Source: an uncultured Acidobacteriota bacterium (GTDB taxonomy: Bacteria > Acidobacteriota > Thermoanaerobaculia > UBA5066 > Gp7-AA6). From it: a stretch of 64,000 nucleotides of DNA. A model generated the notes under the pieces. That model saw nothing but the letters and a program-made list of their open reading frames with translations. It did not search any database and was not told the origin of the DNA. Each line of letters opens with the position of its first letter. Position 1 is the first letter of the stretch. The translations under genes and the position numbers were made by a program. Below are positions 48,063 to 53,803 of the stretch, one piece after another. Location: assembly GCA_963764715.1 (NCBI GenBank), contig CAVXTP010000013.1, forward strand, positions 96,001-160,000, in the 5' to 3' direction.

Positions 48063-49649
48063 CTAGAGGACGCGCGTGTACTCGCTCTGGTCCTGCTTCC
48101 ACACCACGACGCCGCAGAACCGCTCGCCCTCCGGGCACACCGGCCGCACTCCCGCGTGGTGGCGCAGCGTGCACGGCGGCAGCAGCCAGGGCCCGATGCG
48201 CGGGTTGACGTCGCGGATCTGCAGGGCCTCGTCGAGGGACGCGCGCCAGATCTCCTCCTGCGCGTTGTAGCAGAGGCGCATCGCGAACTTGTGGTGGAGG
48301 TTCAGGAGGTCCGCCGACTCGGTGAAGCGGATCGCGACGGCGTTCGGCAGCAGGTAGGCCGCGAACTCGTCGGAGACGCCGCGCGAGCGGAGCTCGCCGA
48401 TCGCGCGCCAGGTCTCCTCCATCGTCTCGCGGTAGAGCGCCGCGGCCTCGGGCACGTCGTCGACGAGCATCGGGACGACGTAGTCGGGCTCCTCGGACAG
48501 GTAGGCCGGCAGGGCCGGGCGCGAGGCCGGCGTCATGCGGTGGCGCTGGTCCTGGCTGTCGGCCGTGTGCGAGAGCTTCTTGCGGAAGGTGTAGGACGGG
48601 TGGAAGAGCGCGCGCGAGAGCTTGTCGTGCGTCGTCAGCGTCAGCGTTTCGCCGAGGACGCGGTTCTTCGACGGATCGAGGACCATCCGGATCGCATCGT
48701 CGTCGGAGAGCGCGGCCCGGGGGACGCCGAGGATCTCGCGCACGGCCGAGGCGAGGATCTCCTCGTTGTTGGCCTTCCAGTCGACGAGGCGCGAGACGCG
48801 CGGCCCGAGCTCCGCGTCGAACTCTCGCCGGAACTCGCGGGACGCGCCGCGGACGCGCGGAAGCGCCCGGAACGCCGCGTACTCGGGCGTCTCCTCGAGC
48901 GGCAGCGGGTCCTGCAGGACGGTCGCGTAGAGCGGGTCGTGCCGGAGGACCTCCTCGACCATCTGCCCGACGATCTCCCGCTGCTCCGCCGGCGCGTCCA
49001 TGGTTTCGCAGAGGCGCCAGTACCGGAAGAGCGTCACGCCCGAGACCGTGTGGTACAGGTACGAGAACGTCGCGACCGGGAGCACGTACCGCGCGATCTC
49101 CTGCGCCCGCTTCTTGACCGCGCCCGAGAACCGCGTCCGCCCGTCTCCGCGCGTGCGGCCCGGGAAGAGACCGAAGTAGCGCTCGCCCGCCATCGGCGTC
49201 AGGAGCTCGGTCAGCCGGGCGTAGGCCTCCTGCTGGCGGCGCGCGGCCCGCTCGTAGATGTCCCGCTCGGGCGCGCCCATCGGGGGCACGGCGTAGTTGC
49301 CGCGGCTGACCTCGACGTAGCGCTGGGAGACCTGCTCGGAGTTGTAGAACGGGTGCGAGTGGAGAAACGTCCAGAGGAACTGGCGCGAGACGTTCTCCAG
49401 CGCGAACTGGAAGTGCGCGTGCTGGAAGGTCGTGTGGTGCCCGGCCTCGTAGATCGACTTCGCGATCGCGTCGCGCCGGTCGGGGCGCGCCGAGGCCTGG
49501 TCCTCGGTGACGATCCCCTTGGCCGAGTAGCACGTCCGGGCGGTCGCGACGACGTTCTCGTAGGCGCGGTCGAAGGCGTGGACGAGGCGGACCTTCGGCG
49601 GCGCGGAGGAGAAGGCAAAGCCGCTCTTGGGAAGGGGAAGGCTCGACAT
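48063..49649 (-). CDS. thyX: FAD-dependent thymidylate synthase, tandem two-domain form
   Basis: Domain 1 GHHTTFQH..F..VSR..SEQVSQRY..ARYVLP; domain 2 QDQRHR..AAYLLPN..RLCYNAQEEI; alternative start at 49661. Confidence 0.85.
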   Translation of the reverse strand: MSSLPLPKSGFAFSSAPPKVRLVHAFDRAYENVVATARTCYSAKGIVTEDQASARPDRRDAIAKSIYEAGHHTTFQHAHFQFALENVSRQFLWTFLHSHPFYNSEQVSQRYVEVSRGNYAVPPMGAPERDIYERAARRQQEAYARLTELLTPMAGERYFGLFPGRTRGDGRTRFSGAVKKRAQEIARYVLPVATFSYLYHTVSGVTLFRYWRLCETMDAPAEQREIVGQMVEEVLRHDPLYATVLQDPLPLEETPEYAAFRALPRVRGASREFRREFDAELGPRVSRLVDWKANNEEILASAVREILGVPRAALSDDDAIRMVLDPSKNRVLGETLTLTTHDKLSRALFHPSYTFRKKLSHTADSQDQRHRMTPASRPALPAYLSEEPDYVVPMLVDDVPEAAALYRETMEETWRAIGELRSRGVSDEFAAYLLPNAVAIRFTESADLLNLHHKFAMRLCYNAQEEIWRASLDEALQIRDVNPRIGPWLLPPCTLRHHAGVRPVCPEGERFCGVVVWKQDQSEYTRVL

Positions 49650-49699
49650 CGAATCTGCCATTCTAGCCCTCGCGCGAGGTCCGATAGCATCGGGTACGG

Positions 49700-50539
49700 A
49701 TGGACAGCCGGACCGACGCGGAGCTGCTCGAGGCCGCCCGGCGCGGCGACGCGGGGTCGCTCGAAGACCTCCTCGAGCGCCACCAGGCGCAGGTCTACCG
49801 CTTCGGCATGAAGATGTGCCGCGACCCGGAGGACGCCCGCGACGTCCTGCAGGACACGCTGCTCGCGATGGCGAGGGGCGTCCGCGACTTCCGCGGCGCG
49901 TCCTCGATCTCGACGTGGCTCTACACGATCGCCCGGAGCTTCTGCATCAAGAAGCGCCGGCGCAGCAAGTTCGCGCCGGAGCCGGAGCGTTCCCTCGAGA
50001 GCGACGCCTCGCCCGAAGCGGCGGACCTGCCGGATCCGGGCCGCACCCCCGACGAGGTCCTCGCGTCGAAGCAGGTGCACGACGCGCTGGAGCAGGCGAT
50101 CGGGGCCCTCGAGCCGATGTACCGGGAAGTCCTTCTGCTGCGGGACGTGGAGGGCCTGTCGGCGGCCGAGGTCGCCGAGGTCCTCGGCGTCGGCGTGCCG
50201 GCCGTCAAGAGCCGCCTGCACCGCGCCCGCCTGTCCGTGCGCGCGCACGTCGCGCCGCTCCTGGGGATCTCGCCGCCGGAGCCCGCGGCCGCCCCATCGA
50301 AGTCGTCCTGCCCGGACGTGCTCGAGCTCTTCTCCCGCCACCTCGAGGACGAGATCAGCGCGGATGTCTGTCTCGAGATGGAGCGCCACCTCGCCGGGTG
50401 CGCCCGTTGCCGCGCCACCTGCGATTCCCTGAAGCGCACGCTCGCCCTCTGCCGCACGAGCCCTTCGGTCCCCGTGCCGAAAGCCCTCCAGGATTCGGTC
50501 CGCGTCGCGGTCCGGAATTTCCTCGGGGCGCCGTCCTGA
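49700..50539 (+). CDS. ECF sigma factor fused to a C-terminal ZAS/zf-HC2 zinc-finger domain
   Basis: DARDVLQDT, STWLYTIA, EGLSAAEVAEVLG...VKSRLHRAR, then CPDVLELFSRHLEDEI...ERHLAGCARC (HxxxCxxC). Confidence 0.92.
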   Translation: MDSRTDAELLEAARRGDAGSLEDLLERHQAQVYRFGMKMCRDPEDARDVLQDTLLAMARGVRDFRGASSISTWLYTIARSFCIKKRRRSKFAPEPERSLESDASPEAADLPDPGRTPDEVLASKQVHDALEQAIGALEPMYREVLLLRDVEGLSAAEVAEVLGVGVPAVKSRLHRARLSVRAHVAPLLGISPPEPAAAPSKSSCPDVLELFSRHLEDEISADVCLEMERHLAGCARCRATCDSLKRTLALCRTSPSVPVPKALQDSVRVAVRNFLGAPS

Positions 50540-50582: not shown

Positions 50583-50969
50583 ATGGCGACCGTACAGGTG
50601 ACGGAGGAGAGCTTCGAAGCGACGATCAAGTCGGGAATCGTGATTCTCGACTTCTGGGCCGGCTGGTGCGGGCCCTGCCACATGTTCGCCCCGGTCTTCG
50701 AGGCCGCCGCGGAGCGCCACCCGGACGTGGTCTTCGGCAAAGTCGACACCGAGGCCGAGGCGGGGCTGGCGGCCGCCTTCGACATCCGTGCGATCCCGAC
50801 GTTGATGGTGCTTCGCGACGGCGTCCTCCTCGCGTCCCAGCCCGGGGCGCTGCCCGCCTCGGGGCTCGACGCCCTCGTCGAGAAGGTGCGATCCCTCGAC
50901 ATGGACGAGGTGCGGCGGAGCATCGATGCCGCCGCGGCGGACGCGGCCCGCGGCGCGGAGAACGCCTGA
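50583..50969 (+). CDS. trxA: Thioredoxin
   Basis: DFWAGWCGPC, IRAIPTL. Confidence 0.92.
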   Translation: MATVQVTEESFEATIKSGIVILDFWAGWCGPCHMFAPVFEAAAERHPDVVFGKVDTEAEAGLAAAFDIRAIPTLMVLRDGVLLASQPGALPASGLDALVEKVRSLDMDEVRRSIDAAAADAARGAENA

Positions 50970-51163
50970 TGTGCCGGCGCGCGACCTGCCCGCGGTGCGG
51001 GCTCGCGACGTTCGCCGGCTGCGGCGCCCACGTCGAACAGGTTCTCGGAAACGTGCCGCCGGCGGAGCGGTGCCGGTGCGGCGGGGAGTCCCGGGACGAC
51101 GCGCAAGCCGCCGGGACGAGCCGTTCGCGAGGCTGGTTTTTCGGCCGGCGCGGAAAGGCGTAG
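50969..51163 (+). CDS. Small Cys-rich protein (64 aa)
   Basis: TGATG coupling to trx; MCRRATCPRCGLATFAGCGAHVEQVLGNVPPAERCRC. Confidence 0.85.
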   Translation: MCRRATCPRCGLATFAGCGAHVEQVLGNVPPAERCRCGGESRDDAQAAGTSRSRGWFFGRRGKA

Positions 51164-51169
51164 GCGATC

Positions 51170-51337
51170 ATGGACTCGTGGATCGAGCTCGCCGCTCTCC
51201 TCGTAGGCTGGATTCTTCTCCAGTACTGGATATTGCCCAGGCTCGGAATCGGGACCTGAGCGGTGCCGACGCCGCGCCGGTCGGCGCGGGGGAAGCACCG
51301 GGCGGACGCCGCCGATCGAAAGGACGATTGCCCCTGA
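51170..51337 (+). CDS. Small single-TM protein, candidate selenoprotein (29 aa to TGA; 55 aa with Sec readthrough)
   Basis: MDSWIELAALLVGWILLQYWILPRLGIGT-(TGA 51257)-AVPTPRRSARGKHRADAADRKDDCP; fills the operon gap; SECIS-like hairpin follows the TGA. Confidence 0.65.
51257..51300 (+). promoter_or_regulatory. Bacterial SECIS-like element
   Basis: TGA, lower stem CGGTGC/GCACCG, upper stem CCGCGCC/GGCGCGG, apical loop GGTC starting after a 19-nt spacer from the TGA. Confidence 0.6.
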
Positions 51338-51356: not shown

Positions 51357-52097
51357 TTGATCGGCTGGATCCTCGGATTCGGCCTGCTCGCGAGCGTCGC
51401 CAGCGTCGGGCTCGCCGCCGTGATCCTCCTGCTGCCCGCCGCAACTCGCTCGACCCTCGTCACGACCCTCGTCAGCTACGCCGTCGGGACTCTGCTCGGA
51501 GCGGCGTTTCTGGGGCTTCTGCCCAACGCCCTCGCCCAGGCGGGCCACCGGCCGGTCCTGGCCGCGACGCTCGGCGGCATCCTCCTCTTCTTCGTGCTCG
51601 AGAAGGTCGTCCTGTGGCGGCACTGCCACGCCGGCGAGTGCGAGATCCACGGACGCCCGGCGGCTGCGCTGATCCTGGCGGGCGACGCGCTCCACAACTT
51701 CGTGGACGGCGTGGCGGTGGCCGCGGCCTTCGAGGTCTCCGTCCCGGTCGGCGTCGCGGCCGGGTTGGCGATCATCGCCCACGAGGTACCGCAGGAGCTG
51801 GGTGACTTCGCCGTCCTGCTGGAGGGAGGCTTCTCCCGGGTTCGCGCACTGATCTGGAACGGGTTGTCCAGCCTGACGACGCTGGCGGGAGCTCTGCTCG
51901 GGTACTTCTCGCTCGAGACCCTTCGTCCGGCGCTGCCGTTCGTGCTGGCCGTTTCCGCCGCGGGCTTCGTCTACGTCGCGGCCGCCGACCTCATCCCCTC
52001 CCTTCATCGAAGAGCCCGGGGCGCCGCCGGACTGGGACAGTTCGCGCTCGTCCTGGCCGGCGTCGCGACGATCGCCCTGCTGCACTCGGATCACTGA
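51357..52097 (+). CDS. ZIP family divalent metal transporter
   Basis: WRHCH, GDALHNFVDG, HEVPQELGDF; multiple TM helices; TTG start. Confidence 0.92.
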   Translation: MIGWILGFGLLASVASVGLAAVILLLPAATRSTLVTTLVSYAVGTLLGAAFLGLLPNALAQAGHRPVLAATLGGILLFFVLEKVVLWRHCHAGECEIHGRPAAALILAGDALHNFVDGVAVAAAFEVSVPVGVAAGLAIIAHEVPQELGDFAVLLEGGFSRVRALIWNGLSSLTTLAGALLGYFSLETLRPALPFVLAVSAAGFVYVAAADLIPSLHRRARGAAGLGQFALVLAGVATIALLHSDH

Positions 52098-52374: not shown

Positions 52375-52881
52375 ATGTCCGAAATCCACAGCACCTACCC
52401 CTTCTCGATTCGATGGCAGGATGGCAAGCGCGGTCTGGCCAGCGCCCCGGATGGGCTCCCGGATCTCGAGATCGCCTCGCCGCCGCAGTTCGGCGGGCCG
52501 GGCGGCCGCTGGACGCCGGAGCACCTCTTCGTCGGCGCCGCGACGAGCTGCTGGTTGACCACGTTCCTCGCGATCGCCGAGCTGTCGAAGCTCGATTTCG
52601 TGGCGGTCGAAGCGGCGGGGGAGGGGTTTCTCGAGCGCGGCGACGACCGGCGCTTCTCGATCACGCGGATCGTTCTGCGCCCCCGCGTGACGGTGCGCCG
52701 CGAGGAGGACCGCGACCGGGCGCTGCGGATCGTCCGCAAGGCCGAAGAGTCCTGCCTCGTCGCCCGCTCCATGCGGACCGCGATCGCACTCGAGCCGGTG
52801 GTCTCGGTCGGCGAGGCCGGGGCGCGGGCCGCGGGCGCCGGCCCCTCGTCGGAGCCTCCCGCGATCTCCCCGCCGTCCTGA
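52375..52881 (+). CDS. OsmC/Ohr family peroxiredoxin
   Basis: PPQFGG..WTPEHLF.GA..SC, KAEESCLVARS (both catalytic Cys present). Confidence 0.9.
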   Translation: MSEIHSTYPFSIRWQDGKRGLASAPDGLPDLEIASPPQFGGPGGRWTPEHLFVGAATSCWLTTFLAIAELSKLDFVAVEAAGEGFLERGDDRRFSITRIVLRPRVTVRREEDRDRALRIVRKAEESCLVARSMRTAIALEPVVSVGEAGARAAGAGPSSEPPAISPPS

Positions 52882-52972: not shown

Positions 52973-53803
52973 ATGCTGACCTTCACGCTCGCCGTCGGGG
53001 CGGGCTCGCTCGTCGCGGGCTTCCTCGGCGCGCTCACGGGGCTGGGTGGGGGCGTCGTCGTCGTTCCGCTGCTGACGATCGCGTTCGGCGTCGACATCCG
53101 TTACGCGATCGGGGCGTCGCTGATCTCGGTGATCGCGACCTCCTCGGGCGCGGCCGCGGCCTACGTGAAGGAGGGGTTTTCGAACCTGCGGATCGGGATC
53201 TTTCTCGAGATCGCCACGACGACCGGGGCCCTGGCGGGCGCCGGACTGGCCTCGCGCACCTCGACCTCCGCGATCTCCGTCGCGTTCGGTCTCGTGTTGA
53301 TCGCGTCGGCGTTTCTCACGCTGCGCTCCCGTGGCGACCGGTCCGCGCCGGAAGCGCCGGGAGGATGGGGCCGGCGACTGCGCCTGAACGGCCTGGAGCC
53401 GACGGCGGCCGGACCGAGACCGTACGAGGCCCGCAACGTGCCGGCGGGGTTCGGCGTCATGTTCGTCGCGGGGGGTCTCTCCGGCCTGCTCGGAATCGGG
53501 TCAGGCGCGGTCAAGGTGCTCGCGTTGGACGGGGCGATGGGGCTGCCCTTCAAGGTCGCCACCACGACGTCCAACTTCATGATCGGAGTGACCGCCGCGG
53601 CCAGCGCCGGCGTCTACCTCAACCGCGGGTACATCGATCCCGGCATCGCGCTGCCGGTCATGCTGGGGGTCCTCGTGGGATCGCTCGCGGGCGCGCGCCT
53701 GCTGGCCCGGGCCGAAACCGCGCGGCTCCGGCTCGTCTTCGTCGTCGTGATCCTCGCCCTCGCGGTCGAGATGATCCGCAGCGGCATCACCGGGAGCATC
53801 TGA
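52973..53803 (+). CDS. TauE/SafE (TSUP) family sulfite/organosulfur exporter
   Basis: GALTGLGGG, SGLLGIGSG, KVATTTSNFMIGVTA; about 8 TM helices. Confidence 0.9.
   Translation: MLTFTLAVGAGSLVAGFLGALTGLGGGVVVVPLLTIAFGVDIRYAIGASLISVIATSSGAAAAYVKEGFSNLRIGIFLEIATTTGALAGAGLASRTSTSAISVAFGLVLIASAFLTLRSRGDRSAPEAPGGWGRRLRLNGLEPTAAGPRPYEARNVPAGFGVMFVAGGLSGLLGIGSGAVKVLALDGAMGLPFKVATTTSNFMIGVTAAASAGVYLNRGYIDPGIALPVMLGVLVGSLAGARLLARAETARLRLVFVVVILALAVEMIRSGITGSI

Follow-up and report, generated by a model that had tools for sequence, protein, structure and literature searches.

Bacterial selenoprotein genes of the fdhF type (FdhA) carry an in-frame UGA for selenocysteine (Sec) and, at about 11-12 nt behind it, a selenocysteine insertion sequence (SECIS) hairpin whose apical loop begins with G; their genomes hold the Sec machinery, and homologues with cysteine in place of Sec exist. 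Here we describe a small gene with the same attributes at positions 51170-51337 of a 64,000-nt stretch of DNA from an uncultured Acidobacteriota bacterium (assembly GCA_963764715.1, contig CAVXTP010000013.1, positions 96,001 to 160,000 of the forward strand), referred to below as the window. Judged by comparison with its homologues, it is very probably a genuine selenoprotein gene. Unlike the fdhF-type proteins, its product is tiny (median 56 residues across the family), predicted to be membrane-anchored, devoid of a folded redox domain and unrelated to the listed selenoprotein families.

In architecture, the family resembles the eukaryotic selenoproteins SELENOK and SELENOS. These are single-pass endoplasmic reticulum proteins with one N-terminal transmembrane helix and a charged, Gly/Pro-rich, probably disordered cytosolic tail that contains Sec; SELENOS forms a Cys-Sec selenenylsulfide, which is reduced by thioredoxin. 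Compared on these generally known properties, the small family shares the order of helix and tail. It differs in showing no detectable homology to them (Pfam, 0 families at E ≤1), in having its Sec right at the membrane after the helix instead of at the C-terminus, and in carrying the SECIS inside the coding region.

Two further groups invite comparison. According to the available parts of their descriptions, KCU-star/DUF466, SaoC and UXX-star are likewise very short, truncated in databases at the UGA and often encoded beside transporters, and their post-Sec tails are poorly conserved because the tail must hold the SECIS; unlike the small family they are soluble, with Sec within the last one to three residues. 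Their NCBIfam models gave no match to the small family. MerT, MerE and MerF, including selenoproteins entered as 'putative mercuric transport protein' in the accessible portion of a 2026 review (PMC13188914), are likewise small and membrane-bound, with a Cys/Sec pair at the membrane face, and lie in metal-responsive loci. MerT (PF02411) gave no match, and the small family has one helix, against two or three, and a different motif.

A small gene with an in-frame TGA

From an ATG at 51170, 29 codons (MDSWIELAALLVGWILLQYWILPRLGIGT) lead to a TGA at 51257-51259, which is followed by 25 codons (AVPTPRRSARGKHRADAADRKDDCP) and a second TGA at 51335-51337. The parts of the gene are as follows.

51170..51337, + strand: full coding sequence, 55 residues with predicted Sec at 30 (translation with TGA as U; 152 distinct homologous loci of like architecture)
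51170..51172, + strand: ATG start, 6 nt past the TAG stop of a cysteine-rich open reading frame (ORF)
51179..51235, + strand: single hydrophobic, putatively transmembrane helix, about residues 4-22, including the invariant Gln18 (alignments of relatives)
51236..51256, + strand: juxtamembrane motif P-[RK]-[LF]-G-[VI]-x-T, here PRLGIGT (P23, G26 and T29 invariant in 19 relatives)
51257..51259, + strand: in-frame TGA, predicted to be read as Sec30 (TGA conserved among homologues)
51260..51274, + strand: five post-UGA codons, AVPTP, conserved as [AG]-V-P-x-P with free third positions (codon-position entropies, 58 sequences)
51261..51300, + strand: SECIS-like two-tier hairpin (RNAfold; conserved at the same place in the family; covariation)
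51329..51331, + strand: Cys54 (TGC), the sole cysteine of the tail and a candidate resolving residue
51335..51337, + strand: terminal stop TGA (translation)

A first-pass annotation, made from the letters of the window alone, had proposed a 55-aa membrane-anchored selenoprotein at this place and had remarked that its ORF was absent from the ORF track, where it is indeed listed only once the minimum length is lowered to 25 aa. The helix, LPRLGIGT, the TGA at 51257, the 25 codons and the second TGA at 51335 all lie where they had been placed, as does the ORF itself between the cysteine-rich gene and a ZIP transporter gene, with gaps of 6 nt and 20 nt. The proposal as such is now strongly supported, by comparison and not by the window sequence alone; each of the four outcomes that the annotation had named as refuting was looked for, and none occurred. 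With nearly as much confidence as we have in the gene itself, we consider the best overall explanation to be a 55-residue single-pass membrane selenoprotein whose UGA is decoded via a SECIS and which represents a new family.

Homologues keep TGA or cysteine at codon 30

Searched in six frames with the read-through product, 60 relatives yielded homologues whose matches run through one internal TGA. Of the 19 close relatives extracted, 8 share the window's genus and the other 11 belong to a second family within the order. All 19 have the hydrophobic helix, the motif LP[RK][LF]G[VI]xT, a TGA at the same codon and an in-frame continuation, and in each the start lies 29 or 30 codons ahead of the UGA. 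M1, Q18, P23, G26, T29 and the Sec position are invariant in their alignments, and the next in-frame stop is TGA in 18 and TAA in one. In the phylum sample, a profile built from these relatives has matches in 115 of 401 genomes, and 25 of 25 further loci inspected from this phylum-wide search have TGA at that codon. In total, codon 30 is TGA in 47 and TGT in one of the 48 protein- or profile-found loci that were inspected.

To compare the kinds of codon, we scanned one genome per species for the same upstream motif, restricted to CTN at its first codon. Ending in TAA or TAG, the motif gave 18 matches, none of which is a family member. Ending in TGT or TGC, it gave 50 matches, 10 of them family members and all of these C-x4-C; ending in TGA, the CTN subset contained at least 80 family members, with 6 others among the matches listed. 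The terminal stops of the same genes, determined for 151 tails, are TGA in 96, TAG in 29 and TAA in 26 cases. Since TAA and TAG together make up 36% of these real stops, over a wide range of locus GC in the family (34% to 75%), an ordinary stop at codon 30 would be expected to be TAA or TAG in about one third of members; the first-pass annotation had likewise pointed to TAA/TAG endings as the mark of a plain stop, and the family shows none (0/18, against at least 80 with TGA).

Searched against 1.84 billion representative proteins, the family profile matched 1283 cluster representatives (50% identity) at E ≤0.001. Among the best 150 of these, 116 end just before codon 30 (112 by a motif test, plus 4 evident members that fail the regular expression), and 23 have Cys at the Sec position, mostly as ...T-C-M-S-G-x-C.... 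The remainder have W (5), R (2), G (2) or S (1, after a divergent ...GVPQ, not ...GVPT), and one is unrelated. Cysteine homologues are thus found by both routes, in 23 of the best 150 representatives and in 10 of the 50 TGY pattern matches. By such counts most family members are predicted to use Sec rather than Cys: the pattern scans gave at least 80 TGA forms and 10 Cys forms, and the best 150 representatives comprise 116 truncated and 23 cysteine forms. Most selenoprotein families have more Cys than Sec members.

The kind of codon found, together with the coding signal, the Sec/Cys pairing and the selA co-occurrence described below, gives four independent lines that mark the TGA at codon 30 as a predicted sense codon.

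In some deposited translations, W (P0006, P0020, P0035, P0096, P0102) or G (P0016, P0018) stands at the UGA position with a normal tail after it. Metagenome gene callers applying code 4 or code 25 may be responsible; if they are, a short gene with a conserved Sec codon is able to cause a wrong genetic code to be chosen.

Coding continues past the TGA

Codon-position entropies were determined for the window's subtype, U-[AG]-V-P-x-P (58 sequences). At positions 1, 2 and 3 of the codon they are 0.42, 0.36 and 1.34 for Val +2, 0.13, 0.13 and 1.65 for Pro +3, and 0.34, 0.47 and 0.91 for Pro +5, a pattern that matches that of the codons ahead of the TGA. Because downstream residues served to define the subtype classes, there is some circularity in the amino-acid identities, from which the third-position variation and Pro +5 are exempt. 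Codon periodicity persists beyond the UGA, as is expected of a bacterial selenoprotein gene.

The other main subtype has a Cys exactly at +5 (U-x4-C) in 77 of 152 loci, encoded by both TGC and TGT; in 75 of the 151 tails traceable to a stop, it is the first Cys. Cys forms carry the same downstream motif as Sec forms, and among order-level relatives the frame of the tail Cys is kept across indels of one to three codons. Some Cys is present in 136 of 151 tails. Of the eight homologues from the window's genus, six have the near-C-terminal Cys at the position of Cys54, again with TGC and TGT both in use.

A hairpin conserved in structure

RNAfold reproduced the hairpin of the first-pass annotation with its two tiers and loop. 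The lower stem pairs 51261-66 with 51295-300 (CGGUGC/GCACCG), the upper stem pairs 51272-78 with 51283-89 over 7 bp (CCGCGCC/GGCGCGG), and the apical loop GGUC occupies 51279-82, with 19 nt between UGA and loop. To gauge such structures we used a strict SECIS-like test, which asks for at least 6 perfect pairs and a loop of 3-6 nt that has G among its first two nucleotides and starts 15-27 nt past the TGA. In the 70% GC genome of the window, 132 of 1216 ordinary gene-ending TGA codons (about 11%) pass it, as do 156 of 1485 random TGA triplets; the accompanying caveat that hairpins are common in GC-rich DNA was justified by this background rate.

Of 155 distinct family loci, 133 pass the same test, and the commonest loops under it are GUC, GGC, GGA and GGUC. 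With a requirement of at least 5 perfect pairs, 14-24 nt past the UGA, a hairpin was detected in 145 of 152 loci. These 145 hairpins comprise 112 distinct sequences, with CG, GC, AU and UA pairs at every stem position. Covariation was counted in 23 aligned sequences with a common register (7-bp stem, 3-nt loop). Paired cells amounted to 94.4%, against 79.2% in shuffles, and the covariation score was 0.407, against 0.120; neither value was reached by any of 500 shuffles. Both sides have changed in 4 of the 7 pairs (22 cells, 5.4 expected), and slid controls, with the partner shifted by 1-3 columns, gave at most 57.8% paired cells and scores of at most 0.095. The hairpin is accordingly kept in the family with compensatory stem changes: what is conserved is its structure, not its sequence. 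Its significance comes from the comparison across homologous loci and not from the window sequence.

An Rfam scan over the hairpin gave three chance-level microRNA or small nucleolar RNA matches only (E ≥2). To our knowledge, bacterial SECIS elements are poorly covered by Rfam.

Selenium machinery in the genome and across the phylum

The genome of the window encodes the Sec machinery, with matches to selA (460.4 bits, cut-off 268), selB (311.5 bits, cut-off 242) and selD (378.3 bits, cut-off 125) and a tRNA-Sec that was found both by Rfam (66.4 bits) and by ARAGORN (tRNA-SeC, anticodon tca). It also has two FdhA-type genes with an in-frame TGA in the context ...U-H-x-P (G000:C18:37407-40418 and G000:C11:67503-68066, both on the minus strand). 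Both show, under the strict test, a hairpin with a GGUCU loop 19 nt past the UGA. The FdhA hairpins serve as a within-genome positive control for what SelB should recognise, and their geometry equals that of the small gene. By its sequence, the small gene carries all the hallmarks of Sec decoding.

Across the 401 genomes of the phylum sample, selA is present in 112 of the 115 genomes with the family and in 189 of the 286 without it, a supportive association; three of the 189 are flagged as unpublished (G084, G109, G211). Three genomes have the family and no selA match. The first, G416, is 99% complete and has TGT at codon 30 (L266, G416:C1:109900-110500, ...GIGT-C-MSGAC...). The second, G386, is 64% complete. 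The third, G288, has TGA at the codon, and its congener G307 has selA.

A widespread and overlooked family

Across the loci, full length has a median of 56 residues, and the post-Sec tail spans 13 to 157 codons (median 26). Start codons are ATG in 127, GTG in 19 and TTG in 3. A degenerate DNA pattern (the motif plus TGA), scanned over one genome each of 185,579 species, returned at least 119 stretches; 73 of the first 80 are family members by a helix test. With these, 152 distinct TGA-bearing loci are known in total. By record titles, the matches listed are mostly Acidobacteriota, and others come from Geobacter-type Deltaproteobacteria, Geomobilimonas, Syntrophobacteraceae, Myxococcota, Polyangiaceae, Nitrospirae, KSB1, Armatimonadota, Planctomycetes, Spirochaetes and Gemmatimonadota.

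Described families did not account for it. The read-through protein matched 0 families at E ≤1 in Pfam-A and NCBIfam release 20, and 16 database relatives, mostly Cys forms, had chance-level matches only in Pfam and NCBIfam (best E = 0.025). A word-indexed protein search with the 56-residue read-through product gave no candidate; the relatives surfaced by profile search. A related-locus search with the alignment, in which the Sec column was rendered as Cys codons, returned two loci in Eubacteriales that match residues 17-31 only and are left out of the counts. Ten clusters were looked up, and any name given was 'hypothetical protein' only. The family is absent from the 119-family Table 1 of the review cited above (PMC13188914) in its available form. 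Nothing alike was found by full-text literature searches, nor in the accessible text of a preprint (10.1101/2022.07.06.499078), BSepDB (PMC13326102) and deep-Sep (PMC12013277), although supplementary lists, such as Table S2 of the last two, might include it. We conclude that this is a new family within the bacterial selenoproteins that have a canonical SECIS, with a textbook decoding apparatus. It escaped notice because gene callers either end the gene at codon 30 or miss the ORF.

If this assignment is correct, a widespread family joins the bacterial selenoproteome, one that stands out in bacteria by its membrane anchor, its tiny size and the predominance of Sec over Cys. It would also expose a systematic annotation gap, in which databases keep a 29-30-residue stump, and indicate a possible role of selenium in thiol, sulfur and metal stress loci under ArsR regulators and extracytoplasmic function (ECF) sigma factors. 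A short natural Sec peptide with a compact SECIS would, moreover, be usable for experiments.

In a protein atlas, the nearest cluster to a Cys form is a 'hypothetical protein' cluster (0.89), a lead only. Among sequencing runs, none of RNA is listed for the region, which speaks neither for nor against the gene, and the shares in DNA runs are all small (at most 0.19).

Neighbouring genes

In the window, the small gene is flanked by the following ORFs.

48063-49661, - strand: 532-residue ORF just upstream of the sigma factor gene
49700..50539, + strand: ECF sigma factor whose C-terminus is fused to a zf-HC2 (anti-sigma type) domain (Pfam)
50583..50969, + strand: thioredoxin (Pfam PF00085, 85.9 bits)
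50969..51163, + strand: 64-aa cysteine-rich ORF (MCRRATCPRCG...), its ATG overlapping the thioredoxin stop
51357..52097, + strand: ZIP metal transporter, start 20 nt past the stop of the small gene (Pfam PF02535, 113.5 bits)
52375..52881, + strand: OsmC/Ohr-type peroxiredoxin (Pfam PF02566, 53.5 bits)
52973..53803, + strand: TauE/SafE-type anion exporter (Pfam PF01925, 164.3 bits)

The cysteine-rich ORF matched 0 Pfam families, and its best NCBIfam match (E = 0.029) is not significant. In locus L026, the upstream tail is nearly identical to that of the cysteine-rich ORF.

Neighbours were assigned with Pfam in two sets, the first comprising every ORF within about 1.5 kb at 34 loci and the second the nearest flanking ORFs at 85 further loci (150 ORFs). 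Occurrences in the first and second set, respectively, were:

ArsR-type HTH_5 regulator: 5/34, 9/85
DUF302: 8/34, 5/85
Resistance-nodulation-division (RND) pump (ACR_tran): 8/34, 3/85
ECF sigma factor: 6/34 (all with fused zf-HC2), 2/85
FmdB-type zinc ribbon: 2/34, 6/85
Thioredoxin: 4/34, 3/85
P-II-like: 3/34, 2/85
OsmC: 2/34, 3/85
YgaP-like transmembrane domain: 0/34, 4/85
Pyridine-nucleotide disulfide oxidoreductase: 1/34, 4/85
YeeE/YedE sulfur transport: 2/34, 0/85

Rhodanese, DsrE, TauE, ZIP and cation diffusion facilitator (CDF) genes are also nearby in some loci. On the same strand, the ArsR gene lies directly upstream in 8 of 9 cases, DUF302 directly downstream in 4 of 5, the zinc ribbon downstream in 6 of 6 and the YgaP-like gene upstream in 4 of 4. 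Sets of such genes serve in thiol, reactive-sulfur and soft-metal stress responses, and a role of the family in such loci is suggested. The first-pass annotation had cast thioredoxin and OsmC as the partners of the small protein, which is borne out only in part: both recur (7/119 and 5/119 loci, among the ORFs scanned), but ArsR regulators (14) and DUF302 (13) are commoner. The fused form of ECF sigma factor and zf-HC2 is seen near the small gene in distant lineages as well (L050, L074).

Kinship with the YgaP-like domain (DUF2892, PF11127) was considered. It is the upstream neighbour in the 4 of 85 loci mentioned and also in L033, and its tail, ...NLFQS...WCP...RKLGV, resembles by eye the ...LLQ..(V/I)LP.RLGV of the small family. 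The idea was rejected as unsupported: there was no Pfam match, hhalign against five neighbouring DUF2892 proteins returned 0.5% probability, and DUF2892 has two helices.

Protein architecture and a tentative mechanism

As predicted from the alignments, family members begin with a single helix, continue with the motif P-[RK]-[LF]-G-[VI]-x-T-[U/C] and end in a short, charged tail. The short flank ahead of the helix contains on average 0.23 Lys plus Arg, the 22 residues past it 3.9; by the positive-inside rule, this asymmetry would place the tail and the Sec at the cytoplasmic face of the membrane.

In the synthesis of the protein, the SECIS hairpin would recruit SelB with Sec-tRNA(Sec), the ribosome would read the UGA of codon 30 as selenocysteine, and translation would go on for 25 codons to a normal stop. 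For its function we tentatively propose a redox relay, to which we assign less than an even chance. Sec30, at the inner membrane surface, would be a reactive nucleophile that meets a thiophilic stress agent at the membrane, be it a peroxide, a persulfide or a soft metal. A selenenylsulfide would form with a tail Cys (Cys54 here, the +5 Cys in most relatives), and thioredoxin, encoded two genes upstream in the window, would re-reduce the Se-S bond. Stress loci under ArsR or ECF-sigma control would host the Sec site. It is possible, though rather doubtful, that the protein is in essence a minimal Sec-x4-Cys (or Sec...Cys) redox centre that one helix keeps at the cytoplasmic membrane face. It would reduce hydroperoxides (lipid or organic) or persulfides there, be recycled by thioredoxin and represent a bacterial functional counterpart of SELENOK/SELENOS or GPx4. 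Were this so, it would be among the smallest redox selenoproteins known and among the commonest in Acidobacteriota (matches in 112 of 301 sampled selA-positive genomes).

Weighing the evidence

A number of observations speak against the selenoprotein assignment or the relay. Taken alone, the hairpin of the window is no stabler than shuffled sequence (z -1.14; 31 of 200 shuffles fold as well or better). In the family, 22 of 155 loci fail the strict hairpin test, and 7 of 152 are without a perfect hairpin of at least 5 bp. In the window's genus the tail stretch PRRSAR, and in the sister family PAGG[RG], is a translated stem, and part of the amino-acid conservation of the tail exists because the RNA stem, not the protein, imposes it. 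The pattern-scan loci (at least 119) were chosen for TGA, which leaves the protein- and profile-found loci as the unbiased ones. The selA co-occurrence is supportive, not decisive: the relatives do not count as independent, which makes its Fisher p-value too favourable, and selA occurs in 75% of the sampled phylum anyway. With respect to the relay, the window's clade is without the +5 Cys, and the other two of the eight same-genus homologues have Arg or Phe at the position of Cys54 and a Cys-less tail; since 15 of 151 tails altogether lack Cys, a selenenylsulfide with a tail Cys is not universal. Finally, many loci have unrelated neighbours, and because neighbourhoods vary so widely, functional inference from them is weak.

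The alternative that fares best, and which we regard as possible but on the unlikely side, retains a real selenoprotein and dispenses with the relay: the Sec/Cys site would bind a soft metal or metalloid (Zn, Cd, Hg, Cu, As) and pass it to neighbouring transporters or take it from them, much as the cytoplasmic Cys pair of MerT does. Roles of other kinds share what probability the relay and this hand-over leave. ArsR/SmtB-type regulators at 14 of 119 loci, RND pumps at 11 and P-II-like genes at 5 are in line with such a function, as are a ZIP transporter (in the window) and a CDF transporter (L039), at one locus each. U-x4-C or C-x4-C would offer a plausible bidentate soft-metal site, and Sec-containing MerT-type transporters exist, according to the available part of the preprint (10.1101/2022.07.06.499078). 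Against this, thioredoxin, OsmC, YeeE/YedE, rhodanese, DsrE and disulfide oxidoreductases recur, which points to sulfur or redox chemistry, and the window's clade has lost the +5 Cys. ArsR-family regulators also sense persulfides.

That the gene encodes an ordinary 29-residue membrane peptide ending at the UGA, with a hairpin that is some other RNA element (for stability or attenuation) and a coding signal downstream that is a by-product, strikes us as very improbable. TGA is the commonest stop in GC-rich genomes, comparable hairpins follow about 11% of ordinary TGA stops, that of the window is not significant alone, and 116 of the best 150 representatives are deposited in the 29-30-residue form that gene callers produce. 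Yet none of the 18 TAA/TAG matches is a family member, despite 36% TAA/TAG among the real stops and locus GC down to 34%, and Cys is the sole alternative residue at scale. An in-frame +5 Cys in 75 of 151 tails and the persisting codon periodicity are likewise at odds with termination, there is no T-run past the hairpin, and the family co-occurs with selA while the selA-less genome carries the Cys form.

We give equally little credence to a selenium-sensing leader ORF, in which the efficiency of UGA decoding, set by the supply of Sec-tRNA, would determine whether ribosomes get to the ORF's end and so couple expression of the downstream gene to selenium; the peptide would be secondary. The short ORF does end 20 nt ahead of the ZIP start, and many relatives lie closely upstream of a same-strand DUF302 or zinc ribbon gene, 45-283 nt from the hairpin window. 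However, the peptide is strongly conserved (the helix and the invariant Q18, P23, G26 and T29), Cys forms would not sense selenium and still keep the family motif and the +5 Cys, and the genes behind it vary a great deal, often lying on the other strand.

A chance ORF with a chance hairpin and no gene at all, conceivable at 70% GC where open frames and hairpins are common, is ruled out by the comparative data, with 1283 profile-matching representatives, 115 of 401 phylum genomes and members from many phyla at locus GC of 34-75%.

Further observations on neighbouring genes

FmdB-type zinc ribbons with Gly/Ser-rich tails lie directly downstream of the small gene in L080, L083, L093, L120, L131, L134, L062 and L063, and in most of these loci the tails end in ...CG..GGF[ST]. 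An FmdB-family selenoprotein (UxxU) is entered in the table of the review (PMC13188914), as far as its available text goes; with such a protein known, the zinc-ribbon partners may have Sec forms.

In L070 (1273-2238, + strand), an AhpC/TSA peroxiredoxin appears to be split into two ORFs that cover profile positions 2-39 and 68-123. The split could reflect the in-frame TGA of a known Sec-peroxiredoxin.

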